Source: an uncultured Planctomycetota bacterium
Lineage (GTDB): Bacteria > Planctomycetota > Phycisphaerae > SM23-33
Length of the DNA stretch: 64,000 bases
Reading direction: 5' to 3'
Assembly (NCBI GenBank): GCA_903892515.1
Contig: CAITIS010000001.1
Span: 13,552-77,551, forward strand
The notes beneath the pieces are model-generated. The model ran no database searches and was not told where the DNA came from. It worked only from the letters and a program-made list of their open reading frames with translations. Numbering within the stretch: position 1 is the first letter of the stretch; every line of letters begins with the position of its first letter. Position numbers and translations under genes: made by a program. Below, piece by piece: positions 5,261 through 56,807 of the stretch.

Positions 5261-5296
5261 TGAAACCGCTTCCCGCCGCCGACAATGAATACAGCT

Positions 5297-6786: not shown

Positions 6787-6835
6787 TTGCTGACTCCTCG
6801 TTTGACTGCACCATCATAGCGCGGGGAGAACGAGG

Positions 6836-6966: not shown

Positions 6967-7045
6967 GCTTTTCCGCATCGCCTATAATTCATCAAGGAAT
7001 GGGCCTGGGGCCCGGCCTCCGGGAGCCTCAGGCCGGAGGTGCAAC

Positions 7046-7858
7046 ATGCTGTTGAGTGCAAGAAAGTTGGAACACTTCACGCTCCGCGCGTTTGACGGCG
7101 AGATCGGCAAGGTGCATGACTTCCTGTTCGAGGACAATCAATGGTTGCTGCGCTACATGGTGGCCGACACGCGACGCTGGCTGCCCGGCCGGCAGGTGCT
7201 GATTGCCCCGGCCTCGCTGGGTGAGCCCGAACTGACGAATCGCGACTTGCCCGTGTCGCTCAGTATCGACCAACTCCGCAACAGCCCCGGAATCGAGACG
7301 GACCGGCCCGTGTCGCGGCAATTGGAAGGCGACTTGAGCACCTACTATGGCTGGCCCATGTACTGGTATGGCCCCTCAGCCATCGGCGCTGGCGCCATGC
7401 CCGAGCCCATGTCCGGCCTGCCGATTCCGGGCGCGATGGGCCATGCGACCGACCCGTATCGAATGGAACCCGCTTCGGCGTCGGCCTCGGCCACAGCCAC
7501 CATAGAGCCCGAAACGGGCGACCCGCATCTGCGCAGCATGCGTGAGCTGGTTGGCTACCGAATCGCTGCCACGGATGGCGACATTGGGCACCTTGACGAT
7601 TTCCTGCTGGAGACGAAGAGTTGGGCGGTGCGCTACCTAGTCGTGGACATCCGAAACTGGCTGCCCGGCCGAAAAGTTCTGGTGGCCCCGCCGTGGATCA
7701 GCCGGTTCGTCTGGGAAAAAGCCAAGGTGCATGTGGACCTGCCGCGTGAACTCATCCGCACGGCCCCGGAGTTTGACCCCAATGCGCCCGTCGCGCGAGA
7801 GTACGAAGATGCCCTGCATCGGCACTACGACCGCGACCGGTACTGGGACGATTTCTAG
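7046..7858 (+). CDS. Tandem PRC-barrel domain protein
   Basis: Two repeats of a PRC-barrel-like segment (FDGEIGKVHDFLFEDNQW...RYMVADTRRWLPGRQVLIAP and ATDGDIGHLDDFLLETKSW...RYLVVDIRNWLPGRKVLVAP); the ORF-track start at 6959 lies inside the repeat array, so the ATG at 7046 is preferred. Confidence 0.5.
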   Translation: MLLSARKLEHFTLRAFDGEIGKVHDFLFEDNQWLLRYMVADTRRWLPGRQVLIAPASLGEPELTNRDLPVSLSIDQLRNSPGIETDRPVSRQLEGDLSTYYGWPMYWYGPSAIGAGAMPEPMSGLPIPGAMGHATDPYRMEPASASASATATIEPETGDPHLRSMRELVGYRIAATDGDIGHLDDFLLETKSWAVRYLVVDIRNWLPGRKVLVAPPWISRFVWEKAKVHVDLPRELIRTAPEFDPNAPVAREYEDALHRHYDRDRYWDDF

Positions 7859-7865
7859 GAGGTTT

Positions 7866-7900
7866 GCCCCGTGGCACAGCCGCCCCGGGCTGTGCTCTTT
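7866..7900 (+). terminator. REP-like terminator hairpin (CCCGTGGCACAGCCGCCCnnGGCTGTG + T-tract), copy 1
   Basis: 8 nt after the PRC-barrel stop; stem CACAGCC/GGCTGTG followed by CTCTTTGG. Confidence 0.55.
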
Positions 7901-8244: not shown

Positions 8245-8472
8245 GTGCTCCCTGCCTTTCAACGCGGCGAAAGACCCACAACGAGCCTCTCGTTTGACCC
8301 TCCTATTAGAGGCGAGAAGTGTGAACTCTGCAATCCGTGTAGCACACTGCTTCTTGTCTAGGGGAAACGCCCAGACCAGATAGGAGAAGGCTGAGCCCGA
8401 AGGCCAGAGGCATGACGAACTTGAGGATTCTCGGTTTGCCGTCCAGACTGAACTTCGGGACCGGGCATCGCC

Positions 8473-8506
8473 CCTACGCCCTACGCCCTATGCCCTACGC
8501 CCTACC
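8473..8506. repeat. Heptamer tandem array (TACGCCC)x5
   Basis: CCTACGCCCTACGCCCTATGCCCTACGCCCTACC immediately downstream of the GT2 stop. Confidence 0.7.
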
Positions 8507-15499: not shown

Positions 15500-15536
15500 G
15501 GCGTAGGGCGTAGGGCGTAGGGCGTAGGGCGTAGGG
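15498..15536. repeat. Heptamer tandem array (GGGCGTA)x5
   Basis: Overlaps the nagB stop codon. Confidence 0.75.
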
Positions 15537-15697
15537 AAAAACAAGACTGGGCCACAGAGACGCAGAGGGCTCAGAGAAGACAAGATTTCAATGCGGCGCG
15601 TGTGCAACTGGTTGTACGCGCGCCGGATGGTTGTGTACCACGACAGTCCGTAGGCTGGGCCGAGGAATTCTTTCCGAGGCCCACCTTCGGCGTCCCG

Positions 15698-15741
15698 GCT
15701 TCCCGCTTCCCGATTCCCGCTTCCCGATTCCCGCTTCCCGT
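15698..15741. repeat. Heptamer tandem array (TTCCCGN)x6
   Basis: CTTCCCGCTTCCCGATTCCCGCTTCCCGATTCCCGCTTCCCG. Confidence 0.75.
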
Positions 15742-16337: not shown

Positions 16338-17798
16338 ATGCGGCTGACACCTCAGGGCGTGCGTTGCCTCAGCGAAAGCGAAATCCAGGCCATCGTCGAT
16401 ACGTCGCTGAACATCCTCGACGAGATCGGCATGATCATCGAGAGCCCGTTCATCTGCCAGCGCTTCGTCGAGGCCGGGGCCGCGTGGGACGGGCAAACCC
16501 GTCTGAAGTTCCCGCGCTCGCTCATGCGGCGGTACATCGAGTCGCAGCGGCGCGAGAATTTCCCCGCGCCCGTGCCGCGCGAACCGCACGTGGGCGGCAG
16601 CATCGGCAGCTACCCGATGCGGTACCTCGACCCCTACGACCGCACCATCAAGCTGCACACCGCCCGCAGCGTGGCCGACCTGACCCGCCTGGCCGACGCC
16701 GTGCCCAACATCGATGGCATCGGCTCGTGCGGCGTGCCGTCGGACATCTCGCCGCTGCTCCAGCCGCTGTGGATGCGGTTTATTTCCTGGCGGTACGCCG
16801 AGAAGCTCTCCAACTCCTACGTGCTGTGGGATCACCGGCTTTGCCCGCTGATCGCCGAGTTCGCCGAGACGGTCTCGGCCATGGAACCGCAGAACGGCGG
16901 CGTGAAGCGGTACTTCCGCGGCGAGAACTACATCATCACCCCGCTGCGGTATGCCCGCGAAGAGGCCCTGCAATTCGAGTGGTTCTACCAGCACGGCTAC
17001 CGGGTGACAGTGGGCAACTTGCCGTCCATCGGCGGCTCGGCGCCCAGCACGATGGCCGGCGCGGTGGCGCTGGGGTTGGCGGAGTCGCTGGTCATCAACT
17101 TCTGGCAACACGTGTTCTATGGCGACAAGGGCCTGTACGTGGCGTGTGCGATTCCGCCGCTGGACATGCGCACCGGCTGCATGCCCTACGGGAGGCCGGA
17201 GCAGACGCTGACGGCCCTGGCCATGTCGCAGATCGCCGATGCCATCGGCGCGCTGGATACCGGCAGCACCGGCCACGGCACGGCCGCCAAGGGCCCCAAC
17301 ATCGAGGCCGGGCTCAACAAGGGTTTTGGGGCCGGCATGCAACTGGCCCTGTTCGGCGACGTTGACTGGCACTTCGGCATCTTCAGCACCGACGAAATCT
17401 ACGACCCGCGGCTGATCCTGATCGAGAACGAGTTCGTGGACAGCCTGCGTCGCATCAGCCGGGGCTTTGAGGTGACGCCCGAGACGCTGGCGTACGACGT
17501 GATTCGCGAGGTCGGCGCCGGCGGGCAGTTCCTCTCGCACCCGCACACGCACGAGCACTTCCGCCAGGAACTGTGGCTGCCCGACTTGTTTAATGGCATG
17601 TATATGGAAGGCTGGATGGCCGCCGGCAGGCCGGAGATTTTAGAGCGGGCTCGGGACAAGGTGCTGGATATCCTGGCCAGCCACCACCCGCGCGGCATCA
17701 AGCCCGAGACGGAAGAAGCGTTGCTCTCGCTGATGGACAAGTACGCCGCCGAGCTGAACCTGACGGACTACGTCCGGCCAACAGATTTGCCAAAGTAG
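16338..17798 (+). CDS. MttB-superfamily (trimethylamine/glycine-betaine-type) corrinoid methyltransferase homolog, no in-frame amber codon
   Basis: 486 aa, the length and N-terminal pattern (LSESEIQAIVDTSLNILDEIGM) of the MttB family; uninterrupted ORF, so a non-pyrrolysine member. Confidence 0.55.
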   Translation: MRLTPQGVRCLSESEIQAIVDTSLNILDEIGMIIESPFICQRFVEAGAAWDGQTRLKFPRSLMRRYIESQRRENFPAPVPREPHVGGSIGSYPMRYLDPYDRTIKLHTARSVADLTRLADAVPNIDGIGSCGVPSDISPLLQPLWMRFISWRYAEKLSNSYVLWDHRLCPLIAEFAETVSAMEPQNGGVKRYFRGENYIITPLRYAREEALQFEWFYQHGYRVTVGNLPSIGGSAPSTMAGAVALGLAESLVINFWQHVFYGDKGLYVACAIPPLDMRTGCMPYGRPEQTLTALAMSQIADAIGALDTGSTGHGTAAKGPNIEAGLNKGFGAGMQLALFGDVDWHFGIFSTDEIYDPRLILIENEFVDSLRRISRGFEVTPETLAYDVIREVGAGGQFLSHPHTHEHFRQELWLPDLFNGMYMEGWMAAGRPEILERARDKVLDILASHHPRGIKPETEEALLSLMDKYAAELNLTDYVRPTDLPK

Positions 17799-17814: not shown

Positions 17815-17849
17815 GGTTGGCCCCGTGGCAAAGCCGCCCTCGGCTGTGC
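17815..17849 (+). terminator. REP-like terminator hairpin, copy 2
   Basis: GGCCCCGTGGCAAAGCCGCCCTCGGCTGTGCG, 17 nt after the MttB stop. Confidence 0.55.
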
Positions 17850-17859
17850 GAACCAGCGT

Positions 17860-17912
17860 TTTCACGGGTCCGTCTTCACGGGTCCGTTTTCACGGGTCCG
17901 TTTTCACGGGTG
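17860..17912. repeat. 13-mer tandem array (TTCACGGGTCCGT)x4
   Basis: Direct tandem copies between convergent MttB and lon. Confidence 0.7.
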
Positions 17913-23315: not shown

Positions 23316-26300
23316 TCATCGATCCTGCGTATCCCTTGTATCCCTGCGAACCTTGGGCCACAAACCGACGGCTATCAAAGTCAGCAAGGCGGCCGCCTGC
23401 ACGTACACCAGGCCCACAACAACCGTTGAGGCCGCCAGCGGCTCGGGCGGCTGCGAGGCCACCAAGCCCAATAGATCGGCCTTGACGCCGGTTTTTCCTG
23501 AGACGAGCTTGGGCGAAGGCGCCGCCTGAGCCCAGAACTCACCCTCTGCCGGTGCGGCGGCGAGCACGTCGCGGCGAAGGTCGATCGCCTCATCCCACCG
23601 CAGCCTCTCCATCGCGGTGGCCGAATCGGGCTCGACGGTTACACGCTCGGGCCTCCAGTGCGGCCCCTGGACCCGCAAGTTTTCGTAGATGTGCACCGGC
23701 AGATCGTCGGAGTGGATGGCCGGCAGCCCGTCGGGCGTCAGGTCGTGATAGATGGCCGAGGGCCCCGCGTGGCCACTGGACGCCGTGGCCACGGCACCCG
23801 GCTGAGAAGCTGCGGCCCCGACCGACATGTCGTTCCCGCTTCCCGACTCCCGATTCCCGATTCCCGACTCCCGATTCCCGCTTCCCGATTCCAGATTCCC
23901 GCTTCCCGCCGGTATCTCCCGTAACTGGACGTTGCGAATCTCTACCGCCCCGCGACTGGTCGTGGCCAGCAGGAACAACCCCGCCTCTTTCGCGCCCATA
24001 AAGAGCTGCCCAACGTGCCGCCACGTCGGCGTAAGCTGCTCGGCGGACAGCCGGATTCGCGACTGGAACTCCCGCCACCAGGCTTGCCCCAGCCCTGGCC
24101 GCCAGCCGCCGATAAAGACATTGTCAGCCCCGTGCGGCGCGCGAATGTCCATATCGATCCGGTACAGGCCATCCTCCAGCGTCACTGGCCAGGTCTTCAC
24201 GTCGGCATTATTGGCAGCGCTGGCTTGGAGCGTGATCTCCCCTACCGCCGGCAGCAGGTTTGCCCCCGGCTGGGCCAGGGGCCACTGCGCCGACTCTATG
24301 ACCTGGCGATACACCGGGTCGGCCGCCAGGACGTAGCGGACGTCAAAGAGGCTCAGCAGCCGGTTGTCGCGGATGAGCCACTGCCAGAAGCAGTTCTCGC
24401 CCCAGGGCTCAAAGCCAAACATTCTGGCGTGTTCCAGCGGTTGCAGCGGGCCGTAGTAGGAAATGCTGGCGATGCCGAACAAGGCTGAGCAGTTGGGCAG
24501 CAGCAGTTCCGCCGGCCGATGATGGTAGTCGCGCGAAAGTCCCCACACACGGAACGGTTGGCCAGCGGCGTGCTGGGCCAGCCAGGCAGCGGCTGGGGAG
24601 ACCTCCGGGTCGATCCGCTTGTCCGGCGGCGGGACGTCGACGAACCGACAGAGGATAAACAGGTCCAGCAGCAACAGCGGCAGGAGAATCAGCAGGCGTC
24701 TGTCTGAACGGCCAGGCACACTAACTATGGGTGCCACACCTGCGGCGTTTGCAGGTGTGCTGTCACGCACGGCTGCAGACTCCGCAGCCGTGGCACCCGG
24801 CGATGTAGAATCTGGTTCTTTCGTAGCACAGCCGCCCTCGGCTGTGGTCTTTTGTTCTTTCGTAGCACAGCCGCCCTCGGCTGTGGTCTTTTCCGCGGGC
24901 GATACTCCCGTGGCCCGACCAAGCGCAATCACCGTCAGCGCCAGCAGCGCCACCGGCACGTAGAAGGCCGGGCTTTTCCATTCCAGCGCTTGCTGCACCG
25001 ACTGCGCCACCGAGTGCGGCACGTTCAGCACCGGCGCCATCGCTTCCAACCGGCCGGTGCGGGCGGCCATTAGCAGTCCCAGCGACAGCAGGCACATTAC
25101 CCCGGCCAGGAAGATGCAGACCTTGCTGAGCGTTAGTTTCCAGGCCTCGTCGCGGCGGATGAGCCACCAGTGCATGCCGATGGCCGAGAGCGCCGCCAAG
25201 GCCAGGTCGAGCGTCAGCACCATCCTGGCCGGGCAGCGAACCTTGCCCAGCACCGGCAGCCAGTACATCAGCCGGTACGTCGGCAGGTATCCGCCCAGCA
25301 TCCAGACGAACGCCCCGGCGCCCAGCCACACCCACAGCCGCACCAGGGGCCCCAGCGGACCGGCCTGCTGCTCTTGCCGCCGCCGATACAACGCCAGCAC
25401 GGCCGCTGCCGCCAGGATCAGCGTGATCAGCCCGACGTAGCCCAGCATCTCGCACTGGTGCCACGGCCCCCACCACTTTTGACTGAAGAAGTTGGGGTCG
25501 CGATTGCCCAGCAAGAACGGGAACAACGCCAGCACGGTTGAGAGCGGGAAGAAGGAGTTCTCGATGGCGGTGGAATACGCCAAGCCCGCGCGGAAGGTCG
25601 CTTGCATGCCCAGCATCGTGACATATATCTGGCTGGCCATAAGCAGGCCTGCCAGCACGCCAGCTGCCAGCGCCGCGGGGATCGCGAACTTCAAAGGCCT
25701 TCCACGCACGAGCAGGTACACGCCGATGGGCAGACTCATCTGGATCACCGTCGGCCAATGACCTGCCGCCAGGGCCAGCGCCATCGCCCCAGCCAGCACC
25801 GCCAGGCCACGACGGACGCCCGCGTGCCACTGCGCGCGCTGGTTCGGGTGCCACTGCTGCGGCGTGTGCAGCAGTGTGGTTACAGCCGCGACCGACTTTG
25901 GCCGCATCAGTTCGATGCCCAGCAGAGCCCACGGCAGCAGGCCGGCAGTCTGGATGACGCCCAGGTGCACGCGGTGGCCGACCATGAAGCCGCAGAACAT
26001 GAACACGATGGCGCCGAACGCCCCGGCCTCGTCACGCAGCCCCAGCCGGCGCAGGTACACGAACGCCCCCACGCCGGCCGTGCCAAAGGCCAGGAACAGG
26101 CACAGGCTGTACGCCAGTTTCGCGGGCAAGGCCACGAAGAGCCAGTTGGGCGGAAAGAACACGCTGGATTGCGGGTCGGCCATCAGCGACGTGCCGGTGG
26201 CCGAAAATGGGTTCCACAGTGGCAGGTGGCCTTGCCGCAGCGCATCGGCCGTCAGCACGCGCACGGGATAAAAGAAGACGACGTCATCCTCGCCGGCCGA

Positions 26301-26381
26301 CGTGGGATCGGTCCACAGCGGGTACAGCATTCCCGCCGGCAGCAGGACGAGCAACAGAATGGTTAGCCAAGGGCGTGGCAT
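23316..26381 (-). CDS. YfhO-family large polytopic membrane protein (GT-C-like) carrying in-frame copies of two genome repeat families
   Basis: About 14 N-terminal TM helices, a large extracytoplasmic C-domain and a terminal TM; internal repeats TTAEGGCATKEQK x2 and GSGNRES x4 are encoded by the REP and TTCCCGN repeats. Confidence 0.55.
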   Translation of the reverse strand: MPRPWLTILLLVLLPAGMLYPLWTDPTSAGEDDVVFFYPVRVLTADALRQGHLPLWNPFSATGTSLMADPQSSVFFPPNWLFVALPAKLAYSLCLFLAFGTAGVGAFVYLRRLGLRDEAGAFGAIVFMFCGFMVGHRVHLGVIQTAGLLPWALLGIELMRPKSVAAVTTLLHTPQQWHPNQRAQWHAGVRRGLAVLAGAMALALAAGHWPTVIQMSLPIGVYLLVRGRPLKFAIPAALAAGVLAGLLMASQIYVTMLGMQATFRAGLAYSTAIENSFFPLSTVLALFPFLLGNRDPNFFSQKWWGPWHQCEMLGYVGLITLILAAAAVLALYRRRQEQQAGPLGPLVRLWVWLGAGAFVWMLGGYLPTYRLMYWLPVLGKVRCPARMVLTLDLALAALSAIGMHWWLIRRDEAWKLTLSKVCIFLAGVMCLLSLGLLMAARTGRLEAMAPVLNVPHSVAQSVQQALEWKSPAFYVPVALLALTVIALGRATGVSPAEKTTAEGGCATKEQKTTAEGGCATKEPDSTSPGATAAESAAVRDSTPANAAGVAPIVSVPGRSDRRLLILLPLLLLDLFILCRFVDVPPPDKRIDPEVSPAAAWLAQHAAGQPFRVWGLSRDYHHRPAELLLPNCSALFGIASISYYGPLQPLEHARMFGFEPWGENCFWQWLIRDNRLLSLFDVRYVLAADPVYRQVIESAQWPLAQPGANLLPAVGEITLQASAANNADVKTWPVTLEDGLYRIDMDIRAPHGADNVFIGGWRPGLGQAWWREFQSRIRLSAEQLTPTWRHVGQLFMGAKEAGLFLLATTSRGAVEIRNVQLREIPAGSGNLESGSGNRESGIGNRESGSGNDMSVGAAASQPGAVATASSGHAGPSAIYHDLTPDGLPAIHSDDLPVHIYENLRVQGPHWRPERVTVEPDSATAMERLRWDEAIDLRRDVLAAAPAEGEFWAQAAPSPKLVSGKTGVKADLLGLVASQPPEPLAASTVVVGLVYVQAAALLTLIAVGLWPKVRRDTRDTQDR
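23832..23909. repeat. TTCCCGN heptamer array (about 11 units) inside the YfhO-like CDS, in frame (encodes GSGNRES repeats)
   Basis: Same repeat family as 15698-15741 and 28441-28516. Confidence 0.75.
24815..24893. repeat. Two tandem REP-like hairpin units (TTCTTTCGTAGCACAGCCGCCCTCGGCTGTGGTCTTTTG) inside the YfhO-like CDS, in frame
   Basis: Identical 40-mer units also occur at 46141-46215. Confidence 0.75.
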
Positions 26382-26387
26382 GGTGGT

Positions 26388-26468
26388 TCGTGAATCCGTT
26401 TACTCGTGAATTCGTTGATCCGTTAATTCGTTAATTCGTTAACTCGTGAATCCGTTGAATTCGCTCAT
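26388..26468. repeat. Degenerate tandem repeats of CGTGAATCCGTT / AATTCGTTA upstream of the YfhO-like gene
   Basis: GGTTCGTGAATCCGTTTACTCGTGAATTCGTTGATCCGTTAATTCGTTAATTCGTTAACTCGTGAATCCGTTGAATTCG. Confidence 0.6.
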
Positions 26469-27538: not shown

Positions 27539-27565
27539 AGGGCGTAGGGCATAGGGCGTAGGGGC
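27539..27565. repeat. Heptamer array (GGGCGTA/GGGCATA)x3
   Basis: Immediately upstream of the MtaA-like start. Confidence 0.6.
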
Positions 27566-28341: not shown

Positions 28342-28440
28342 ACGGGGCCGGTGAAGTGGCCCGTTGCGATGCTTGAACAAGAAAGGCTGGCAGGTCAGGA
28401 GACCCGCCAGCCCTTTTGATTGAGGTAATCGCCGTCCTCC

Positions 28441-28516
28441 GGCTTCCCGATTCCCGCTTCCCGAATCCCGCTTCCGGCTTGCCCGAATCCCGATTCCCGT
28501 TTTCCCGATTCCCGGC
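28441..28516. repeat. TTCCCGN heptamer array
   Basis: GGCTTCCCGATTCCCGCTTCCCGAATCCCGCTTCCGGCTTGCCCGAATCCCGATTCCCGTTTTCCCGATTCCCGG. Confidence 0.7.
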
Positions 28517-28524
28517 TTCTCCCG

Positions 28525-29904: not shown

Positions 29905-29976
29905 GAACTTCTCCGATCAAGCCAGGCGAGGCCTTCGGTCCACAGGCCCGCAGCAGAAAGAAGGGCGAAAGACAGG

Positions 29977-30057
29977 GTGTAGGTCGTAGGGCGTAGGGCG
30001 TAGGGAAATACGCCAAACCGCCGCGTCTCTTCCCTACGCCCTATGCCCTACGCCCTT
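29977..30057. terminator. Long hairpin built from inverted GGGCGTA heptamer arrays (stem ~20 bp, loop ~25 nt)
   Basis: GTAGGTCGTAGGGCGTAGGGCGTAGGGAAATACGCCAAACCGCCGCGTCTCTTCCCTACGCCCTATGCCCTACGCCC, downstream of the sensor kinase stop. Confidence 0.55.
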
Positions 30058-33683: not shown

Positions 33684-33905
33684 CCTCAGCCCGAAGGGCT
33701 GCCAGAGTACAGCCCAGGGCAAAGCGAAGCGCCGCCCTGGGTATACATCAACATATACAAATTAGCCCTGAAAGGGCGGCAAGATTGTCGCGCCCCTTCA
33801 GGGCTGAATACGTACGGCCCGTACCCAGGGCGGCGCTGTCGCTTGCCCTGGGCTGTATTCTCTGAGCCTTTCAGGCTGGCGCAAGACCGCATCTTCGGCC
33901 CTTGG
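33684..33905. repeat. ~220-bp palindromic multi-hairpin element, copy 1
   Basis: Its first ~60 bp are the reverse complement of its last ~60 bp; three GC hairpins; homologous to 36120-36318. Confidence 0.6.
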
Positions 33906-36119: not shown

Positions 36120-36318
36120 GGCCACGCAGCCCGGAGGGCTGAGAGAATACAGCCTGGGGCAACGCCCCAGGTGAGGTGCCTCACACAGCCAAGCCCTGCA
36201 CGGGCGCGAGAGGCAAAGCTCTCCCGCTCTTGCAGGGCTGAATCGTCGCACCCCGCCAACCCAGGGCGGCGCTTCGCTCTGCCCTGGGCTGGACTCTTCA
36301 AGCCCTTCGGGCTGAAGG
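36120..36318. repeat. ~200-bp palindromic multi-hairpin element, copy 2
   Basis: Alignable to 33780-33905 (for example ACCCAGGGCGGCGCTTCGCTCTGCCCTGGGCTG); same orientation as copy 1. Confidence 0.6.
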
Positions 36319-36495: not shown

Positions 36496-39378
36496 ATGAT
36501 GCATCGGATTGAAGTTCGGTTGCGTTCGGAGTTGCCCGACCCCCAAGCCCAGGCCGTGCTGCTGCAGGTGGCAGAGCTGGGCATACATAGTGCGCGCGAA
36601 GTGCAGACCGCCCGGCTGTTCTTCCTGGCCGGCGAGCTGAGTGAGGCCGACCTCGACCGCGTGGCCCGCGAGCTGCTGGCCGACCCGGTCACCGAGACGT
36701 ACAGCCTCGCCGACGACGATGGCCAGGGCGAGGGCAAGGTCATCGAGGTGCACCTGAAGGCCGGCGTGATGGACCCGGTGGCGGCATCGACGCTCAAGGC
36801 CATTTGCGACATGGGCTTTGCCGTTGCAGCCGTCCGCACCGCCCGGCGGTACGAGTTCCACGGCCAGGTCGGCCAGGACCAACTGGCCACCATCGCCCGG
36901 AGGCTGCTGGCCAACGATTGCATCGAGGACGCCCACTTCGCCGCGTACACGCCGCCTGAATCGCACGCGGGCCAGTACCAGCTCGTGGTCCACGAGATCG
37001 CCATCCGCCAGCTTGACGACGCGGCTCTGGAGAAGCTCAGCAGCGATCGCGACCTGTTCCTCAACCTCACCGAGATGCGGACCATCCAGGAGCACTATCG
37101 CAAGCTGGGGCGCGAGCCGCGCGACGTGGAGATCGAGACCTTCGCCCAGACCTGGAGCGAGCACTGCGGCCACAAGACCTTCCGCTCCGACGTGTCGGTC
37201 CGCGACGAACGCGGCCGGCAGGTCGAGGAGATTCCCAACCTCATCAAGAGCACCATCTTTGCGGCCACGCAGAAACTGAACAAGCCCTGGTGCATCAGCG
37301 TGTTCAAGGACAACGCCGGCGTCATCGAGTTCGACGAGCAAAACGCCGTGTGCTTCAAGGTCGAGACGCACAACCACCCCAGCGCGCTGGACCCTTACGG
37401 CGGAGCGGGCACGGGCATCGGCGGGGTCATTCGCGACCCCATGGGCACGGGCATGGGCGCCTTTCCCGTGGCCAATACCGACATTTTCTGCTTTGGCCCG
37501 GCAGACCTGCCGATGGAGCAGCTGCCCAAGGGCGTGCTGCATCCGCGGCGAATCATGCGCGGCGTGGTGGCGGGCGTGCGCGATTATGGCAATCGCATGG
37601 GCATCCCCACGGTCAACGGCGCGGTGTACTTCGACGAAAAGTACGTCGGCAACCCGCTGGTCTTCTGCGGCACGGTGGGCGTGCTGCCGCGGAGCATGTG
37701 CTTTAAGGAAGTAAAGCAGGGCGACGCCATCGTGGTCGTGGGCGGCAGGACTGGCCGCGACGGCATCCACGGCGCGACCTTCTCATCCGGCGAGCTGACG
37801 CACGAGCACGAGACGGAATTCTCCGGCGCGGTGCAGATCGGCAACGCCATCACCGAAAAGAAGACGCTCGACACGATCATCCAGACGCGCGATTCGGGGC
37901 TGTACAACGCCATCACCGACTGCGGCGCGGGCGGCCTGTCCAGCGCCGTCGGCGAGATGGGCGAGGAGATCGGCGCCGAGGTGCATCTGGATCGCGTGCC
38001 GCTCAAGTACGCCGGGCTGAGCTATTGGGAAATCTGGGAATCCGAGGCGCAGGAGCGGATGGTCCTGGCCGTACCGCAGGAAAAGGTGCAGGAAATACTG
38101 CGCGTATTCGCCTCCGAGGACGTCGAGGCCACCGTCATCGGCCACTTCGGCACGCCCGAAAAGCAGCTGCGGCTCTTCTACACCGGCACGCTGGTGGGTG
38201 AGATCGACATGCGTTTCCTGCACGACGGCCTGCCCCGGCCAACCAAGGACGCCCTGTGGCAGAAACCCGAGCGGAAGAGCCCGACCGTCCGGGCCGTGCG
38301 CAACTACACCAAGATGCTGCTGAAGGTGCTGGGCTCACCTAACGTCGCCAGCAAGGAATGGATCATTCGCCAGTACGATCACGAGGTGCAGGGCGGCAGC
38401 GTCATCAAGCCGCTCATCGGCGTGACGGGCGATGGCCCCTCCGACGCGGCCGTGCTGCGACCCATCCTGTCCAGCCGGCGTGCCGTCGTGCTGGCGTGCG
38501 GCATGAACCCGCGATTGGGAGACCTGGACCCGTACCAGTCGGCCCTGCACGCCATCGACGAGGCGCTGCGGAATATCGTCTGCGTCGGCGGCGATCTTTC
38601 ACGCACGGCCATTCTGGACAACTTCTGCTGGGGCAACTGCAACAAACCCGACCGCATGGGCTCGCTGGTGCAGGCGGCCAAGGCATGCTACGACGGCGCC
38701 CTGGCGTACGGCACGCCGTTCATCTCGGGCAAGGACTCGCTCAACAACGAATTCCAGACCGAAACCGGCCAGACCATCGCCATCCCGCCGACGCTGTTGA
38801 TCTCGGCCATCAGCGTGATCGCCGACGCGGGCAAGTGCGTCTCGGCCGATCTGAAGCAGGCCGGCAACGTGGTCTTCGTGCTGGGCACCACCACGGCCCA
38901 CCTGGGCGGCAGCCACTTCCTGCTGGCATCGGGCAAGGAAACCGGCACGGACGTCCCGCCGGTCGATACGGTCGGTTCGCGGCGGATCATGGAAGCCGTG
39001 CAGCACGCCATCGCTGATGGGCTGGTGCGGAGTTGTCACGATCTGTCCGAGGGCGGCCTGGCGGTCGCGGCGGCAGAGATGGCGTTTTCGGGTGGGCTGG
39101 GGCTGAGCCTGGAAATCAGCGAAATGCCCGCCACCGGCAAGGTACCCGCACAGGCTCGGCTGTTCGCCGAGAACGCCGGGCGATTCCTCGTCGAGGTGTC
39201 TGCGGCCAAGGCGGAAGAGTTTGCCGCCCGCATGGAAGACCTGGCCTGCGGCCAAGTGGGCAAAGTGACCGACACCGGCCGGCTGTTCATCACGGCCCAG
39301 GGCGATGCGGTGGTCGATGTGGAAATCGCCAAGGCCAAGGCGGCTTGGAAGGGTTCTTTGAACCACAAAGAGCACTAA
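36496..39378 (+). CDS. purL: Phosphoribosylformylglycinamidine synthase subunit PurL with N-terminal PurS-like domain (PurS-PurL fusion)
   Basis: PurL motifs (THNHPSALDPYGGAGTGIGGVIRD); N-terminal ~90 aa resemble PurS; the C-terminal codons are formed by the downstream repeat. Confidence 0.9.
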   Translation: MMHRIEVRLRSELPDPQAQAVLLQVAELGIHSAREVQTARLFFLAGELSEADLDRVARELLADPVTETYSLADDDGQGEGKVIEVHLKAGVMDPVAASTLKAICDMGFAVAAVRTARRYEFHGQVGQDQLATIARRLLANDCIEDAHFAAYTPPESHAGQYQLVVHEIAIRQLDDAALEKLSSDRDLFLNLTEMRTIQEHYRKLGREPRDVEIETFAQTWSEHCGHKTFRSDVSVRDERGRQVEEIPNLIKSTIFAATQKLNKPWCISVFKDNAGVIEFDEQNAVCFKVETHNHPSALDPYGGAGTGIGGVIRDPMGTGMGAFPVANTDIFCFGPADLPMEQLPKGVLHPRRIMRGVVAGVRDYGNRMGIPTVNGAVYFDEKYVGNPLVFCGTVGVLPRSMCFKEVKQGDAIVVVGGRTGRDGIHGATFSSGELTHEHETEFSGAVQIGNAITEKKTLDTIIQTRDSGLYNAITDCGAGGLSSAVGEMGEEIGAEVHLDRVPLKYAGLSYWEIWESEAQERMVLAVPQEKVQEILRVFASEDVEATVIGHFGTPEKQLRLFYTGTLVGEIDMRFLHDGLPRPTKDALWQKPERKSPTVRAVRNYTKMLLKVLGSPNVASKEWIIRQYDHEVQGGSVIKPLIGVTGDGPSDAAVLRPILSSRRAVVLACGMNPRLGDLDPYQSALHAIDEALRNIVCVGGDLSRTAILDNFCWGNCNKPDRMGSLVQAAKACYDGALAYGTPFISGKDSLNNEFQTETGQTIAIPPTLLISAISVIADAGKCVSADLKQAGNVVFVLGTTTAHLGGSHFLLASGKETGTDVPPVDTVGSRRIMEAVQHAIADGLVRSCHDLSEGGLAVAAAEMAFSGGLGLSLEISEMPATGKVPAQARLFAENAGRFLVEVSAAKAEEFAARMEDLACGQVGKVTDTGRLFITAQGDAVVDVEIAKAKAAWKGSLNHKEH

Positions 39379-39560
39379 GAGAAGAACCACAAAGGGCACA
39401 AAGAGAAGACTTGCACAGCAGCAAGAGAAGAACCACAAAGGGCACAAAGAGAAGACTTACACAGCGGCAAGAAGAAGAACTCAAAGGCCACAAAGAGAGA
39501 CCAGGCCAAGAATAAGCCAAGCTGCAGGGTACAACGAGAAGAACAGAGACGACACAAAGA
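39361..39560. repeat. 46-bp tandem repeat (~2.5 units) rich in CCACAAAGGGCACAAAGAG
   Basis: Starts inside the last purL codons; no unique spacers, so not CRISPR. Confidence 0.7.
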
Positions 39561-39565
39561 GACAG

Positions 39566-39970
39566 ATGTTAGAACGATCTGCCAATCCGGTGCCGATTCC
39601 CGTGGAGTTGGATCTCGCATCCAATCGGGTTATTGGCTGCGCTATCGAGGTGCATCGGCATCTTGGGCCGGGGCTGTTGGAGTCGGTCTACGAGCGAGCA
39701 TTGATACACGAACTGCACTTGCAGGGCGTTGACGCGAAACAGCAAGTGGCCGTCAGCGTTCGATACAAAGACATAACAATCCAGGGCCAGCGCATCGACC
39801 TTCTGGTTGAGCCCGGAATCATTTTGGAACTGAAGGCAGTGGACGTTCTGCTGCCGATTCACGAGGCCCAACTGCTGAGCTACCTCAAGAGTACCGGCTA
39901 TCGGCTGGGCCTCTTGATCAACTTTGGAGCTACTACCCTCAAGAGAGGCATCAAACGGCTTGTGAATTAA
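39566..39970 (+). CDS. GxxExxY-family protein (PD-(D/E)XK-like), inserted between purL and purQ
   Basis: 134 aa with GCAIEVHRHLGPGLLESVYERAL (GxxExxY motif). Confidence 0.55.
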   Translation: MLERSANPVPIPVELDLASNRVIGCAIEVHRHLGPGLLESVYERALIHELHLQGVDAKQQVAVSVRYKDITIQGQRIDLLVEPGIILELKAVDVLLPIHEAQLLSYLKSTGYRLGLLINFGATTLKRGIKRLVN

Positions 39971-40005
39971 CTTCGTGCCCTTTGTGCCCTTTGTGGTTCA
40001 AGAAG
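39969..40005. repeat. Inverted copy (CTTCGTGCCCTTTGTGCCCTTTGTGG) of the upstream CCACAAAG repeat
   Basis: Reverse complement of repeat units at 39383-39405; lies immediately after the GxxExxY stop. Confidence 0.65.
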
Positions 40006-40009
40006 ACCC

Positions 40010-40765
40010 ATGAAACCCAGAGCAATCGTTCTAAGAGCGGCCGGTGTGAACTGTGACAAGGAATCTGAGTACGCCCTTTCGTTGGCGGGCTTCGAGGCCA
40101 CGCGGGTGCATCTCTTTCGCGTGATCGAGCAGCCGGCGCTGCTTGACGACGTGCAACTGCTGATGTTTCCGGGCGGGTTCTCCTACGGCGACGACGTGGC
40201 CGCGGGCAAGATCTTCGCCAACCAGATCATTCACCGGCTGGCCGAGCCGCTCAACAAGTTCGTCGCCGACGGCAAGCTGATCCTGGGCGTGTGCAACGGC
40301 TTCCAGGTGCTGATAAAGAGCGGGCTGCTGCCATGGGGCAAGGCCGATGCCGCCAGCGCCAACCAGGACGCCACGCTGGGCTGGAACGACAGCGGCAGCT
40401 TCATCGACCGCTGGATCCGCCTGGCCAGCGACGGCGACAAGTGCGTCTTCCTGAAGCGGGGCGAATCGCTGCAACTGCCCATCGCCCACGGCGAGGGCAA
40501 GTTCCTGACGGCCAGCAAGCAGATCCTCAAGAAGCTGCGCGACGGGCAACAGATCGTCGTGCGCTACGAAGGTGACAACCCCAACGGCAGCGAAGATGAC
40601 GTGGCGGGCATCTGCGACCCCACTGGCCGCGTGTTCGGCCTGATGCCGCACCCCGAGCGCTTCGTGGACATCACGCAGCACCCCGCCTGGACGCGCGGGC
40701 AGGTGAAGCGAGCCGACGGCCTGGTGGTCTTCCAGAACGCCGCGGCGTACCTGAAGAGTTCCTAG
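40010..40765 (+). CDS. purQ: Phosphoribosylformylglycinamidine synthase subunit PurQ (glutaminase)
   Basis: Class I glutamine amidotransferase catalytic motif LGVCNGFQVL; His/Glu at the C-terminus. Confidence 0.85.
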   Translation: MKPRAIVLRAAGVNCDKESEYALSLAGFEATRVHLFRVIEQPALLDDVQLLMFPGGFSYGDDVAAGKIFANQIIHRLAEPLNKFVADGKLILGVCNGFQVLIKSGLLPWGKADAASANQDATLGWNDSGSFIDRWIRLASDGDKCVFLKRGESLQLPIAHGEGKFLTASKQILKKLRDGQQIVVRYEGDNPNGSEDDVAGICDPTGRVFGLMPHPERFVDITQHPAWTRGQVKRADGLVVFQNAAAYLKSS

Positions 40766-40785: not shown

Positions 40786-40866
40786 GGCCCCGTGGCAGCT
40801 CGGCGAACCCGTGGCGCAGCCCGCGGCCGAACCCGTGGCACAGCCGCCCTGGGCTGTGGCTTTTGC
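40786..40866 (+). terminator. REP-like hairpin cluster (3 degenerate units), copy 3
   Basis: CCCCGTGGCAGCTCGGCGAA / CCCGTGGCGCAGCCCGCGGCCGAA / CCCGTGGCACAGCCGCCCTGGGCTGTGGCTTTTG, 21 nt after the purQ stop. Confidence 0.5.
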
Positions 40867-40890: not shown

Positions 40891-40936
40891 GGTTTCACGC
40901 CCGAGGGCGGACGTACCACGATTATGAAACCAGTTC
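40891..40936. mobile_element. MITE-like element fragment (GGTTTCAC...ATTATGAAACC)
   Basis: Shares termini and the GCCCGAGGGCGG hairpin with 55063-55190. Confidence 0.4.
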
Positions 40937-45360: not shown

Positions 45361-45819
45361 ATGGAACTGCAAACGTTTCTGAAGAAGCAGGGCGTGCCGT
45401 TCGAGCTGCACCAGCACGAGACGGCCTTCACCGCCCAACAAGTGGCCCAGGAAGAGCACGTCAGCGGCGACGTGGTAGCCAAGAGCGTCCTGGTCCGCGC
45501 CGGCGACCGGTATCTTTTGTGCGTGCTGCAAGCCAGCCACAAAGTCGACCTGAATCGGCTGGCGGCAGTGCTCCAGAGCGACCAGTGCGAACTGGCCGAC
45601 GAGGCGGAGATTGCGCGACTCTTTCCTGACGCAGAGGTGGGCGCCGAGCCTCCCTTCGGTAAAATGTACAACCTGGAAACGCTGGTGGATGAAGCCCTGG
45701 CCAAGTGCCGGTGGATCACCTTCCAGGCCGGTACGCATCGACAGGCGGTGCGAATGCGTTACGATGATTACGCCCGCCTGGCCCAGCCGAGGGTGGCGAA
45801 CTTTTCGCTCCACCTCTAG
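45361..45819 (+). CDS. YbaK/ProX-type aminoacyl-tRNA deacylase domain protein
   Basis: 152 aa; YbaK-fold pattern (KSVLVRAGDRYLLCVL...PFGKMYNLETLVDE). Confidence 0.5.
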   Translation: MELQTFLKKQGVPFELHQHETAFTAQQVAQEEHVSGDVVAKSVLVRAGDRYLLCVLQASHKVDLNRLAAVLQSDQCELADEAEIARLFPDAEVGAEPPFGKMYNLETLVDEALAKCRWITFQAGTHRQAVRMRYDDYARLAQPRVANFSLHL

Positions 45820-45840
45820 AAAGAGTCAAGGGAGCCGCGG

Positions 45841-46056
45841 ATGACCCAGCAGAAATATGCTCTGTATTGTCCCAAGTGCGGGCGAGTCGAGGGCTTCGTG
45901 CCCGAGTCTTCGGATGAAGGCGGCGATGACGGCATCGGCGAGGCCGATGAGGTGATCTCTGAAGAGGTCGTGCGAACGCCCTCGGGAACAAGCCTCCGAG
46001 TGCGCTGCCCGCGCTGCGGCGGCTGGGTCAAGGGAGACCGCGTCAGGCCCGTGTAA
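45841..46056 (+). CDS. Small zinc-ribbon protein
   Basis: Two CxxC pairs (CPKCG ... CPRCGG) around an acidic linker. Confidence 0.3.
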   Translation: MTQQKYALYCPKCGRVEGFVPESSDEGGDDGIGEADEVISEEVVRTPSGTSLRVRCPRCGGWVKGDRVRPV

Positions 46057-46100
46057 GGCTGCGCCCACGAGGGCTCAGGCCGGAGCCGGTTCATAACCTG

Positions 46101-46215
46101 GCTCGCCCCGTGGCACAGCCGCCCCCGGCTGTGAACTTTGCTTCTTTCGTAGCACAGCCGCCCTCGGCTGTGGTCTTTGCTTCTTTCGTAGCACAGCCGC
46201 CCTCGGCTGTGGACT
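46101..46215 (+). terminator. REP-like hairpin array (3 units), copy 4
   Basis: Units 2 and 3 are identical to the 40-mers at 24815-24893; the array lies ~45 nt after the zinc-ribbon gene stop. Confidence 0.6.
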
Positions 46216-46251
46216 TGGCGGCCCCGTCGACGTCTGCTCGCGCGACTCAGC

Positions 46252-47067
46252 CTATTGCTTTGGCTGCGTGGTGGCTGCCTGCTTCTGCTTGGCTATGATC
46301 TGTTTCCACCACCTCCAGGCGACGTCGGGCTTGCGCTCGTGGCTGCCGGGGATTATCTCGATCTTCATGCCGCGGCAGCCGTGGTCGTAGAAGTAGCGAT
46401 ATGCCCGCCAGGAATCGCGCGTGACCACGTCCCACTGGCTGGCCCCGGGGCTCACGCCGGTCCTGCCGAAGTAGATGTATATCTTCAGTCGGCGAAAGGC
46501 GTCGCCGATGGGGATGTCTCCAACCGTGCTGAGATCCCAGTTGACCGATCGGCCAATAATGACCGTGAAGAGTTCGGGGTGCTTCATCACGGTGAAGTAC
46601 ATGGGGTAGCCACCGGCCGAGAATGACGAAATGGCCACGGCCCGTTCGTCGATGCGGTACTTGGCCTTGACCTCCTGCATGCAGGATAGGATGTGCTCGT
46701 CATCGCTGCGCAGGTCGTTCATACGCAGAGGGTGCGGGGCGGGCGTGACGCCCTGCGGGCTGAGCAACTGCGGGGCCAGCACGATGATCTTCTCGTCCTC
46801 GGCCAGGGCCTTCCACTCCTTGATCTGCCGGCTGGAGTCGTCGAAGCCGTGGCTGCCGTGCAGGGTGACCATGAGCGGGTAGGCCTGCTGAGGGTTGTAG
46901 TCGCTGGGGACGTACAGGAAGTACTTGCGCTTGGTCGAGGCGTTGATGAGCTGGATTTCGTCCACCGGCGTGTCCTGCCGCTGCAAGACCGGACAGCCAG
47001 CGCACGCAAGCAGCGCCAGCAACAACGGAACCAACAGGGCCAATGGCGAGGCAAACTTCTTCTGCAT
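46252..47067 (-). CDS. Lipoprotein, alpha/beta-hydrolase (PHB-depolymerase/esterase family)
   Basis: Lipobox LLACAGC; esterase pattern (MVTLHGSHG, SFSAGG). Confidence 0.5.
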   Translation of the reverse strand: MQKKFASPLALLVPLLLALLACAGCPVLQRQDTPVDEIQLINASTKRKYFLYVPSDYNPQQAYPLMVTLHGSHGFDDSSRQIKEWKALAEDEKIIVLAPQLLSPQGVTPAPHPLRMNDLRSDDEHILSCMQEVKAKYRIDERAVAISSFSAGGYPMYFTVMKHPELFTVIIGRSVNWDLSTVGDIPIGDAFRRLKIYIYFGRTGVSPGASQWDVVTRDSWRAYRYFYDHGCRGMKIEIIPGSHERKPDVAWRWWKQIIAKQKQAATTQPKQ

Positions 47068-47293
47068 CGCCATAGTATGGCAACTCTCGCCCTGCAGAGT
47101 CAATCGACCGGTGCAAACAAGCTGCTTGTAACCATGGGCAAAACGCCGTAGGTTTACTCGTCCGTAGCGGTTTTCTCAGCCATGCAAGGAGAAGTGCCAT
47201 GAAAAAGGCCGCTTCCCGCACGACCGCCTCCGTGACGTTTGGCATGGCACATCGAATGCCCATGCAGCATTCACCCGAAAGGAAACTTCTCAC

Positions 47294-54869: not shown

Positions 54870-55062
54870 ATCTGGTCTCTTTTATAAATAGATTGACCAT
54901 AGCCGTTATCGGCCCATCCGTAAGCCCTTGCATGTTACTCCGTTACGGTGCTGCCTGGTCATGTACGCGCGAGCGACACAGCCTACGAGTCCCGCAATTG
55001 CCACCTTCTTTCTGTCCGGTCTTCCTGCCGGATGCGCTGGGCGTCCCCGTGCCTTCAAGTGC

Positions 55063-55190
55063 GGTTTCATAACCGTGGCACGCCCGCCCTCGGGCGTGAG
55101 ACCGCCGAAAGGCATCGATATGACTGCAAAAGCCACAGCCGGGAGCGGCTGTGCCACGGGTGAAACCGGTTATGAAACCGGTTCTAGAAG
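55063..55190. mobile_element. MITE-like element copy B with 12-bp terminal inverted repeats GGTTTCATAACC / GGTTATGAAACC
   Basis: Perfect TIRs; internal hairpins GCCCGCCCTCGGGCG and CCACAGCCGGGAGCGGCTGTG; the right end overlaps the stop of the hybrid HK gene. Confidence 0.55.
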
Positions 55191-56807
55191 CTTCTTAACC
55201 GTTTCGGTCAGCGTCTGCGAACTGAATGGCTTGACCAGCAGGTTCACTTCGGACGCGAGCACGCCGCGGTTGGACAGGGCCTTGCCGGTGTAGCCGGAAA
55301 TATACAGGACCGGCATGTCTGGCTTGTGCTGACGTATCGCAGCCGCGACTTCCGGGCCGCCAATGCCCGGCATGACGACGTCGCAGATCAGCAGGTCGAT
55401 CTTCCAATTCCGCCGCTCGCTCAACTGCAAGCCCTCGGACAGGTTCGCCGCGGCCAGGACCGTGAAGCCGCATTCGCGCAGCGTCTGTGACACCACGCTG
55501 CAAATGGCGGCCTCGTCCTCAACCAGCAGAAGGGTTGCGGTTCCCGTCGGCAGCGTCAGGAGCGTCTGTGCGGCACCAGCCGGCGCGGGTTCTTCCGCGA
55601 CCCGTGGCAGATAGATCGTGAACGTCGCGCCGCGTCCGGGCTCACTGTCGACGGCGATGTACCCGCCGCTCTGCTTGACGAAGCCATACACCATGGACAG
55701 CCCCAAGCCGGTGCCGTATCCCGGGGGCTTGGTCGTAAAGAGCGGTTCGAAGATGTGCCTCAGAGTCTCCCGGTCCATGCCCAGTCCCGTGTCCGTGACC
55801 GTGGCCATCACATGGGCCCCGGCCGTCGCGCCGGGATGTCGCCGAACGAAGCTCGCGGACAGGTTGACATTGGCCGTGGCGATGCTCAGATCTCCGCCCT
55901 GGGGCATGGCATCGCGTGCATTCACAATCAGATTCATCAGGGCCTGTTCGAACTGGCCCCTGTCCACCTTGACATGGCCCAGGTCGGCCGAGGGAAGCAG
56001 CGACAGCTTGACGTCCTCGCCCAGCATGCGCGCCAGCGACTTGAACATGTCGTATATCGCGGTATTGAGATTCAGCACCTCGGGCCTGAGCGCATGTTTC
56101 CGGGTAAAGACCAGCAGATGCTCGGACATGGTGGCCGAACGATCCACCGCTGCCAGGATTTCGCGCGTGCATTCCAGGCCTTCTTCATCGATGAGCTTGC
56201 GGCGGATGAGCATCTCGGTGAAGCCCTTGATCACGGTCAGCTGGTTGCGGAAATCGTGGGCGATGCCGCCCGCCAGCAAGCCGATGGCTTCCATCTTCTG
56301 GGCCTGAATGAATTGCTGCTCGAGCTTGCGTCGTTCGGTCACGTCCGTCATGACCAGTTGGGTGGCCTTCTGACCGTGATAGGTGATCGGCCAGCCGGAG
56401 ATCTCCACGTGGCGCAGGCGTCCATTCAGGCTCTTTACGGTCTCGTCGGCGCCCCGAGAGTGCGTGCCCGGATGGGCGGGCTTGCGGATCGCCTCCAGCA
56501 CAGCGGCGTGGCGATCGGCCGCGGGGATGAAGCCCAGCAGGCTCCGGCCGATGAGGTCGCTTCGCCGGGCGGCGCCCAGCAGCTTGATCCCGGCGGGATT
56601 GCTGTATATGCAACGGTTGTCGGCATCGGCCACCAGGATGGCGTCTTGGGCCATCTCAACCAGGGCGAGGTAGCGCTGCTCGCTGTCGCGCAAGGCATCT
56701 TCGGCGCCGAGCTTGTCCCCCACGATGAGCAGCCGTAGAGGCTCACTCGCCATGCCGTCGTTGGGACTAGTGGCATCCATGACACCCACTGCACACATCT
56801 CTTTCAT
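55170..56807 (-). CDS. Hybrid sensor histidine kinase (PAS-HisKA-HATPase-REC)
   Basis: H-box HDFRNQLTVI; C-terminal REC (LLLVEDE...DVVMPGIGG...KPF). Confidence 0.8.
   Translation of the reverse strand: MKEMCAVGVMDATSPNDGMASEPLRLLIVGDKLGAEDALRDSEQRYLALVEMAQDAILVADADNRCIYSNPAGIKLLGAARRSDLIGRSLLGFIPAADRHAAVLEAIRKPAHPGTHSRGADETVKSLNGRLRHVEISGWPITYHGQKATQLVMTDVTERRKLEQQFIQAQKMEAIGLLAGGIAHDFRNQLTVIKGFTEMLIRRKLIDEEGLECTREILAAVDRSATMSEHLLVFTRKHALRPEVLNLNTAIYDMFKSLARMLGEDVKLSLLPSADLGHVKVDRGQFEQALMNLIVNARDAMPQGGDLSIATANVNLSASFVRRHPGATAGAHVMATVTDTGLGMDRETLRHIFEPLFTTKPPGYGTGLGLSMVYGFVKQSGGYIAVDSEPGRGATFTIYLPRVAEEPAPAGAAQTLLTLPTGTATLLLVEDEAAICSVVSQTLRECGFTVLAAANLSEGLQLSERRNWKIDLLICDVVMPGIGGPEVAAAIRQHKPDMPVLYISGYTGKALSNRGVLASEVNLLVKPFSSQTLTETVKKLLEPVS

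Follow-up and report, generated by a model that had tools for sequence, protein, structure and literature searches.

GTAG-tagged REP families have been described in more than 80 species, among them Planctomycetes, Verrucomicrobia, and Chloroflexi (Di Nocera et al. 2013, PMC3733652). These REPs prefer the tandem and convergent gaps downstream of ORFs, some lie in frame within genes (most numerously in Opitutus terrae), and the tag of the O. terrae family (GTAG-20) is mostly GTGG (PMC3733652). The TnpAREP protein of Escherichia coli requires a hairpin together with GTAG, cuts between C and T, and can extend an array by units (Ton-Hoang et al., PMC3333891). Every tnpAREP is paired with a REP of its own that has a GT[AG]G foot, and horizontal transfer is suggested by the patchy taxonomic distribution of tnpAREP (Quentin et al. 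2018, PMC6006769). Such enzymes, the REP-associated tyrosine transposases (RAYTs), are of the HUH/Y1 type and are related to the TnpA of IS200/IS605. RAYTs are usually pictured as vertically inherited, and REP families as specific to a species or genus.

Here, we analyze a family of short hairpins in a 64-kb stretch of DNA (the window, by which the whole stretch is meant throughout). The initial annotation had presented them as REP-like elements placed shortly after stop codons and had read them as terminators. The systems used for comparison included REP-TnpAREP of E. coli, the REPINs of Pseudomonas fluorescens, and the families GTAG-1 to GTAG-24.

Results

Anatomy and copy number of the hairpin

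The core sequence CACAGCCGCCCNNGGCTGTG has 15 matches in the window when up to 3 mismatches are allowed on both strands, versus 0.23 ± 0.47 in dinucleotide-preserving shuffles, and every hairpin site reported in the initial annotation is present. Reading of the sites combined with a scan for GT[AG]G plus a hairpin gives 14 full REP units at 7 loci within the 64 kb (Table 1). Of these units, 12 are extragenic and 12 lie on the + strand, whose GC skew is slightly negative. The unit consists of a 5' GT(G/A)G tag (GTGG or GTAG in 14 of 14 copies), an 8-bp stem (CACAGCCG/CGGCTGTG), and a 4-nt loop (CCCT or CCCC); most window copies have this 8-bp stem and 4-nt loop in place of the 7-bp stem and 6-nt loop first proposed.

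The core hairpin folds at -13.9 kcal/mol, and window copies range from -13.9 to -21.9 kcal/mol. When compared with shuffles, hairpins with their flanks are spread between z = -0.6 and z = -3.1 across the copies. The 38-nt unit that had been written out for the family is a consensus that occurs verbatim nowhere in the window, and the repeats reported as identical 40-mers are exact over 37 to 39 nt (38 nt within the 46101 locus, 39 nt within the 24815 locus, and 37 nt between the two). A two-unit block of 87 nt is shared by the 24804 and 46130 loci at 91% identity. The list of loci first given was sound as far as it went but overlooked the two inverted pairs (5309/5362 and 55075/55134), and the three degenerate units reported at 40786 are two truncated heads and one full REP. 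Inverted doublets are thus present at 2 of the 7 window loci; the pair at 55060-55175 folds as a single long hairpin (-58.5 kcal/mol, z = -4.5).

Table 1. Hairpin units of the 64-kb window and the features that accompany them
Feature	Position	Strand	Context
Melibiase-domain gene (Pfam)	3134-5260	+	Upstream of REP 5309-5331
REP subfamily B, GTAG CACGGGCG tcc CGCCCGTG	5309-5331	+	48 nt past stop of 3134-5260(+); TTCATAACC precedes
Inverted partner of 5309 unit, GTAG CATGGGCG tct CGCCCATG, tail AGCTTTTC	5362-5384	-	
Single REP, GTGG CACAGCCG cccc GGGCTGTG, innermost pair broken	7871-7894	+	12 nt past TAG stop of gene 6959-7858(+)
Single REP, one stem mismatch (CAAAGCCG)	17825-17848	+	26 nt past stop of MTTB-family gene 16338-17798(+)
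14-nt tandem repeat (CGTTTTCACGGGTC, 3.9 copies)	17857-17911		Directly 3' of REP 17825
Two exact 39-nt tandem units	24815-24892	+	REPs 24823-24846 and 24862-24885; within gene 23316-26381(-)
Two truncated REP heads (CCCGTGGC..., 12-nt period), then full REP 40835-40858 with tail GCTTTTGC	40786-40858	+	Begins 21 nt past stop of purQ-like gene 40010-40765(+)
Head-to-tail array of three REPs, 39-nt period	46101-46216	+	REPs 46110-46133, 46149-46172, 46188-46211; between convergent genes 45841-46056(+) and 46252-47103(-)
REPIN-like inverted pair	55062-55180	+/-	REPs 55075-55098(+), with compensated stem CACGCCCG/CGGGCGTG, and 55134-55157(-), 12 nt past stop of hybrid histidine kinase gene 55170-56807(-); both flanked by CGGTTTCATAACC
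Motif CGGTTTCATAACC	5296-5308, 46086-46098, 55062-55074	+	
Motif CGGTTTCATAACC	40920-40932, 55168-55180, 5256-5268	-	
7-nt tandem arrays	6833-6856, 6924-6965, 8472-8505, 15497-15536, 15693-15740, 27539-27563, 28438-28519, 29974-30005, 30032-30056		

The window hairpin is a short GC-rich stem-loop palindrome, its copies are dispersed and mostly extragenic, and it bears an unpaired 5' GT[AG]G foot, the GT(G/A)G form of which also dominates among variants in other genomes. Every testable defining feature of a REP is present in this family, and the U-tract of a terminator is absent. Rfam models matched the hairpin neither across the whole window at the gathering score nor over 45800-46400 at E ≤ 1, and a tRNA/tmRNA scan found none. 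Three strain variants (L116 to L118) are 99.99 to 100% identical to the window and are hence uninformative on the presence or absence of individual copies.

Two further observations concern sequences that adjoin the units. The motif CGGTTTCATAACC has 6 matches in the window, versus 0.76 expected. Several REP heads have it directly on their 5' side, and the 55062-55180 pair has it as its outer arms; the mobile unit may extend to include it. Tandem duplications of only a head or only a tail adjoin full REPs at window positions 40786-40834, at L121 (1227-1330), and in the flanks of L128 and L130 (for example, ctgtgccacaaggaaa three times and CCCGTGGC three times), and these may be footprints of cutting and rejoining by a RAYT.

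Spread across genomes and covariation of the stem

A scan of one genome per species for the exact 24-mer GTGGCACAGCCGCCCNNGGCTGTG recovered at least 115 loci, in genomes labeled as about eight phyla and with unrelated flanks; the source genome is absent from the listed loci. The labels among the 80 titles listed comprise about 46 Planctomycetota lineages, 15 Acidobacteriota, 8 Chloroflexota, 4 Hydrogenedentota, and 2 Verrucomicrobiota, with 1 each for Sumerlaeota, Actinomycetota, "delta proteobacterium," and Zipacnadia and 1 unclassified. Because several of these loci are on megabase contigs and one is in a complete genome (CP050848), contamination of MAGs cannot account for all of this spread. 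Among viral contigs in IMG/VR, 21 contain the exact 24-mer, and a RAYT is encoded on none of these 21. Apart from a T at position -1, kept in 153 of 178 copies in other genomes, the flanks are unrelated. Many of the copies in other genomes form inverted pairs 10 to 30 nt apart, and ~45% have an inverted partner within 120 nt; inverted doublets are thus a frequent arrangement, as expected of REPs. A literature search with the literal sequence did not find this stem and loop (its sole match was an unrelated primer), and neither the sequence nor its peptides were found in the supplement of PMC3733652.

Covariation was assessed in 92 distinct variants with at most 6 mismatches to the consensus, chosen by Hamming distance regardless of pairing; the variant search returned zero chance matches in shuffled loci. 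Cells changed on both sides of a pair number 56 in these variants, versus 9.0 ± 2.6 in shuffles (0 of 500 shuffles reach 56), and 88.7% of cells are paired, versus 78.6% in shuffles and 32 to 54% when the partner is slid. Double changes are seen in 6 of the 8 stem pairs. This pattern of substitution points to selection on the hairpin structure. Preservation of the stem by covariation had already been proposed for the window copies, but the examples cited for it (GCCCCGGGC and GCCCTGGGC) alter only one side of the stem and disrupt its innermost pair; the proposal holds through the compensatory changes at 55075, between the 5309 and 5362 partners (C:G to T:A), and across genomes.

Association with a RAYT clade

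All-against-all clustering of the ORFs around the listed 115 loci yielded a sole recurrent neighbor, a protein of ~160 to 190 residues encoded at L005, L008, L076, and L081. It matches Pfam Y1_Tnp, its HxH and YIxxNP motifs are conserved, and the L076 and L081 proteins score 80.6 and 96.7 bits against the NCBIfam model NF047646, "REP-associated tyrosine transposase" (cutoff, 80). At L005, clusters of the hairpin bracket the RAYT gene on both sides.

A metagenome scan with an alignment of these four RAYTs recovered 80 RAYT loci. The three closest (64% identity; L119 to L121) are flanked by this hairpin or by compensated-stem variants (GTAGCCCAGCCGCCCTCGGCTGGG and GTGGCACCCCCGCCCTCGGGGGTG), and RAYTs of at least 64% identity (L119 to L121 and L200 to L202) have this REP or its close stem variants on their flanks. 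At 49 to 60% identity, each RAYT has its own, different GTAG/GTGG hairpin alongside. Four members of the clade that came from a protein search were inspected together with their flanks. The hairpin lies just upstream of the RAYT in a Deltaproteobacteria-labeled MAG (L200, one copy), on both sides of it in a Pseudomonadota-labeled MAG (L201), and as a cluster of ~15 exact copies beside a Phycisphaerales RAYT (L202), where subfamily B of the window (CACGGGCG/CATGGGCG) is also found; L199 has a variant stem beside its RAYT. In total, at eleven loci the hairpins or variants with a similar stem flank a Y1/HUH transposase from a single clade, and a RAYT is flanked by its own REP at L005, L076, L119 to L121, and L200 to L202. 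The clade is large: the protein search returned 2,466 relatives at E ≤ 1e-20, more than 120 clusters have an identity of ≥60%, and the name assigned by JGI to many of its members is "REP element-mobilizing transposase RayT."

Given that the 24-mer is widespread in unrelated flanks and that RAYT genes are flanked by the hairpins, we regard the hairpins as a REP/REPIN family mobilized in trans. The description of the elements as REP-like, dispersed, and recently copied was therefore right and can be put more strongly, since the hairpin is very probably the cognate REP of this RAYT clade. Within the 64-kb window, a tblastn search gave no RAYT match below E = 0.4, so a RAYT flanked by its own REP is lacking there, and the enzyme of this organism is inferred.

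Contigs carrying a RAYT of this clade are mostly only ~1 to 2 kb long, and the REP clusters on either side of the gene are the likely points at which assembly breaks. In the Phycisphaerales MAG (L202, 3658-8657 and 9687-10729), the RAYT and REP cluster adjoin phage-like genes for capsid, head closure, and tail completion.

Copies within genes

The 24815-24892 doublet lies antisense within ORF 23316-26381(-), which encodes a membrane protein of 1,021 codons. This ORF is a real conserved gene because it has 217 homologues at E ≤ 1e-10 (those named are Planctomycetota or Phycisphaerae) and because the homologues align on both sides of the doublet. The names of these homologues also point to a Phycisphaerae-like planctomycete as the origin of the window. 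The two units are in frame (2 × 39 nt) and encode KTTAEGGCATKEQ twice, in a variable loop, and the segment is missing from 7 of 11 aligned homologues. Two other tandem arrays accompany this gene. An array of TTCCCGA-type heptamers at 23833-23908 (10.9 copies, 21-nt super-period) is likewise in frame, encodes SGNLESGSGNRESGIGNRESGSGN, and is absent from 11 of 11 aligned homologues, and an 8-nt array (TTCGTTAA, 9.5 copies) occupies 26387-26463, directly upstream of the start at 26381(-).

In other genomes, coding signal continues in one frame for 300 nt or more on both sides of ~20 of roughly 190 copies, and 32 of 187 copies overlap genes called with start-codon correction. The translations of hairpins within ORFs are VAQPPSAV, AQPRAAVPH, or TAEGGCAT. 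One host ORF, that of L106, is the large subunit of carbamoyl-phosphate synthase, CarB (PDB 1bxr, E = 0, 1,208 bits), whose alignment breaks exactly at the 23 REP-encoded residues, between E. coli positions ~769 and 770. Both the window membrane protein and the L106 CarB thus contain, as do proteins hosting Rickettsia palindromic elements, an in-frame insert within a conserved protein that is lacking from aligned homologues (7 of 11 for the membrane protein). Judged from reading frames and alignments, copies of this kind represent real in-frame insertions; from the flanking translations, the hosts at L017 and L040 look like LipB and CcsA.

Placement and orientation

Gene context in the window was taken from a GC3-based ORF map, Pfam, and the called genes of public contigs; the gene calls for other genomes are heuristic (GC3 and ORF length) and crude. 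The window copies at 5309, 7871, 17825, 40786-40858, and 46101-46216 are in gaps between convergent genes, nearer to the stop of the + strand gene and in sense to it, and the 55075/55134 pair is between two - strand genes. A sense copy is near a stop at 6 of the 7 window loci. The reported location of four loci shortly after + strand stops was borne out, with units starting 8, 17, 21, and 45 nt past the stops at 7858, 17798, 40765, and 46056, respectively, and the bias toward gene ends extends beyond the window. By the heuristic calls, single copies in other genomes number 29 in sense and 15 in antisense orientation to whichever gene 3' end is nearest. The numbers become 26 and 5 when the distance to the stop is at most 110 nt, and sense copies lie closer (median, 57 nt) than antisense copies do (151 nt). 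Convergent gaps are the usual permissive sites for any insertion. Placement is nonrandom, and it could result from RNA-level selection or from strand-specific insertion coupled to replication.

The initial annotation took the hairpins to be intrinsic (Rho-independent) terminators that spread by ending upstream transcription. Such terminators would lie where these hairpins do, with stable GC hairpins 12 to 69 nt past + strand stops at five loci and 12 nt past a - strand stop at 55134(-), and the 26:5 sense bias elsewhere would fit as well. The sequence that follows the stem fits less readily. Although CTTT is found within 6 nt of the stem in 8 of 14 window copies (consensus tail, G-N-CTTTTG), no copy has a U-tract right after the stem or more than 4 consecutive T's. 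A lax terminator scan, which asks for at least 5 T in 8, accepts four of the 14 copies, but two of the four are antisense copies within a gene, and terminator-like sites in the window are not in excess of those in shuffles (10 versus 13.6, 16 versus 14.0, and 11 versus 13.2). In other genomes, the tail is barely enriched, with 1.9 to 3.0 T in the 10 nt past the stem versus a background of 1.9, and runs of at least 4 T occur in ~14% of single copies. The array spacers of L202 are also T/C-rich (tcttccgt), and the tail therefore looks more like an array linker than a U-tract. Moreover, termination has no use for a conserved loop, a conserved GT(G/A)G tag, or a link to a RAYT, and about 10 to 17% of copies are within coding sequence. 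It is accordingly improbable that the family consists of terminators, and a terminator effect would be at best secondary and lineage specific.

A related possibility, compatible with mobilization by a RAYT as an added layer, is that the REPs have been secondarily recruited as 3'-UTR elements that stabilize mRNA or modulate translation close to the stop, as in E. coli. Recruitment would account for the sense orientation near stops, for the difference in median distance (57 versus 151 nt), and for the 26:5 ratio within 110 nt, all of which derive from heuristic GC3 and ORF-length calls; copies are also more common in convergent and tandem gaps than in divergent ones, and the same conclusion has been drawn for other REP families (PMC3733652). 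However, a palindrome this close to perfect gives one and the same hairpin whichever way it is inserted, so stabilization alone predicts no orientation bias, and replication-coupled, strand-specific insertion combined with a bias in gene strand could produce the same asymmetry. We consider such recruitment conceivable but rather doubtful. The regular 39-nt period at 24815 and 46101 might instead mark a functional tandem-repeat RNA or a CRISPR-like locus (a CRISPR remnant or ToxI-type antitoxin repeats). This was rejected as exceedingly improbable: the "spacers" are identical T/C-rich 15-mers, there are just 2 or 3 units, one array is within a conserved protein gene, Rfam gives no match even at E ≤ 1, and elsewhere the hairpin is mostly single or in inverted pairs. 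Integron attC sites were discarded by inspection, as the GTTRRRY/RYYYAAC core sites are missing.

Other repeats in the window

Many intergenic 7-nt tandem arrays of 3 to 11 copies are present (Table 1), and these are of two kinds, GTAGGGC/CCCTACG and TTCCCGA/TCCCGCT; the GTAGGGC kind contains GTAG, the tetranucleotide of the REP tag. A second, unrelated family of ~85 nt forms two hairpins with compensatory changes and occurs at 33797-33880(+), 36228-36315(+), and 36120-36200(-); within the last of these, 36127-36171(-) scores 33.1 bits (E = 4.5e-05) against the Acido-Lenti-1 RNA of Rfam (RF01687), below the gathering score of 37. The stop codon of a purL-like gene marks the start of a tandem repeat of 46-nt units (2.7 copies, 39377-39498), whose GGCACAAAG motif returns inverted (CTTTGTGCC, 2.8 copies) at 39971-39995, just past a PDDEXK_3 gene (39566-39970). 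Bracketed by these inverted motifs, the PDDEXK_3 gene between purL and purQ may be an insertion.

Discussion

We are confident that the unit, a DNA hairpin of 24 to 25 nt, belongs to the GT(A/G)G-tagged REPs and that it serves as the recognition hairpin of a RAYT working in trans from elsewhere in the genome. By analogy with E. coli TnpAREP (PMC3333891, PMC3479197), the RAYT would act on single-stranded DNA, mainly that of the lagging-strand template, where it would bind the GT(A/G)G tag and the folded hairpin 3' of it, cut at nearby CT dinucleotides between the C and the T, and join the ends at a new site. Cutting and joining of this sort would seed single copies, inverted doublets (REPIN/BIME), and head-to-tail arrays. 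Selection would then keep the copies that do little harm, namely, those just past genes, above all in convergent gaps, and those in tolerant protein loops where the frame is kept. Once transcribed, a hairpin of -14 kcal/mol probably alters mRNA 3' ends, through protection from exonucleases or weak termination, as a secondary effect and not as the family's raison d'être.

Several features sit less easily with mobilization by a RAYT. Window copies are mostly single or head to tail, and the mobile unit in Pseudomonas is considered to be the inverted doublet. Their stems are mostly perfect, and E. coli TnpAREP needs a stem mismatch to bind (PMC3333891). The T-rich tail and the sense orientation past stops are likewise unexplained by transposition alone.

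A more extended scenario, which we put forward as speculative, is horizontal transfer of a single RAYT/REP lineage with a near-invariant 24-nt hairpin across seven or more phyla of bacteria from soil, sediment, and freshwater (Planctomycetota, Acidobacteriota, Chloroflexota, Verrucomicrobiota, Hydrogenedentota, Actinomycetota, and Proteobacteria-labeled MAGs). Such movement would contrast with the vertical inheritance usually pictured for RAYTs and with the species specificity of REPs. The lineage would be unusually prone to in-frame colonization of essential genes, such as carB, and its hairpins in the Phycisphaerae-like genome of the window would have acquired a T-rich tail and a role as weak terminators or 3'-UTR elements.

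The type of element is already known, and what goes beyond the textbook is the identity of a 24-mer across many phyla together with recurrent in-frame copies in conserved genes. For annotation, about a dozen odd hairpins and two 13-residue repeats in a membrane protein are to be read as REP insertions and not as regulatory RNAs or designed terminators. An identical REP and RAYT clade common to several phyla offers a way to ask about horizontal RAYT/REP movement, and the extent to which REPs can reshape proteins is evident from the in-frame copies in conserved genes, carB among them.

Among known systems, Rho-independent terminators share with this family a GC-rich stem-loop in sense orientation past the stop and, on some copies, a short T-rich stretch. 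They differ in that a real U-tract is absent here, the loop and 5' tag are conserved, and copies occur in genes and as inverted pairs. The subterminal hairpins of IS200/IS605 are, by analogy, also single-stranded DNA hairpins recognized by a Y1 HUH enzyme in a strand-specific reaction, but the hairpins described here enclose no transposase, have no left and right ends, are nonautonomous, and are far more numerous. Rickettsia palindromic elements (RPEs) resemble them as in-frame palindromes that add short peptides to functional conserved genes; RPEs, however, are longer (about 100 to 150 bp) or CGTC tagged, occur only in Rickettsia, and lack a known cognate transposase, whereas the inserts described here are single or doubled 24-nt GT(G/A)G hairpins linked to a RAYT clade.

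The closest likeness is to the GTAG-tagged REPs, BIMEs, and REPINs. These too are GC-rich hairpins of 20 to 40 nt with an unpaired 5' GT(A/G)G. They are dispersed in many copies, whether single or paired in inverted or head-to-tail dimers, and are located past the ends of ORFs in convergent and tandem gaps, with occasional in-frame intragenic copies; RAYTs are flanked by their own REPs, at one REP per RAYT clade. Unlike the described families, this one has a stem and loop sequence not found in the searchable literature and stems that are mostly perfect; in the genome of the window it has a CTTTTG tail and favors single and head-to-tail copies, and one 24-mer is common to genomes labeled as about eight phyla.
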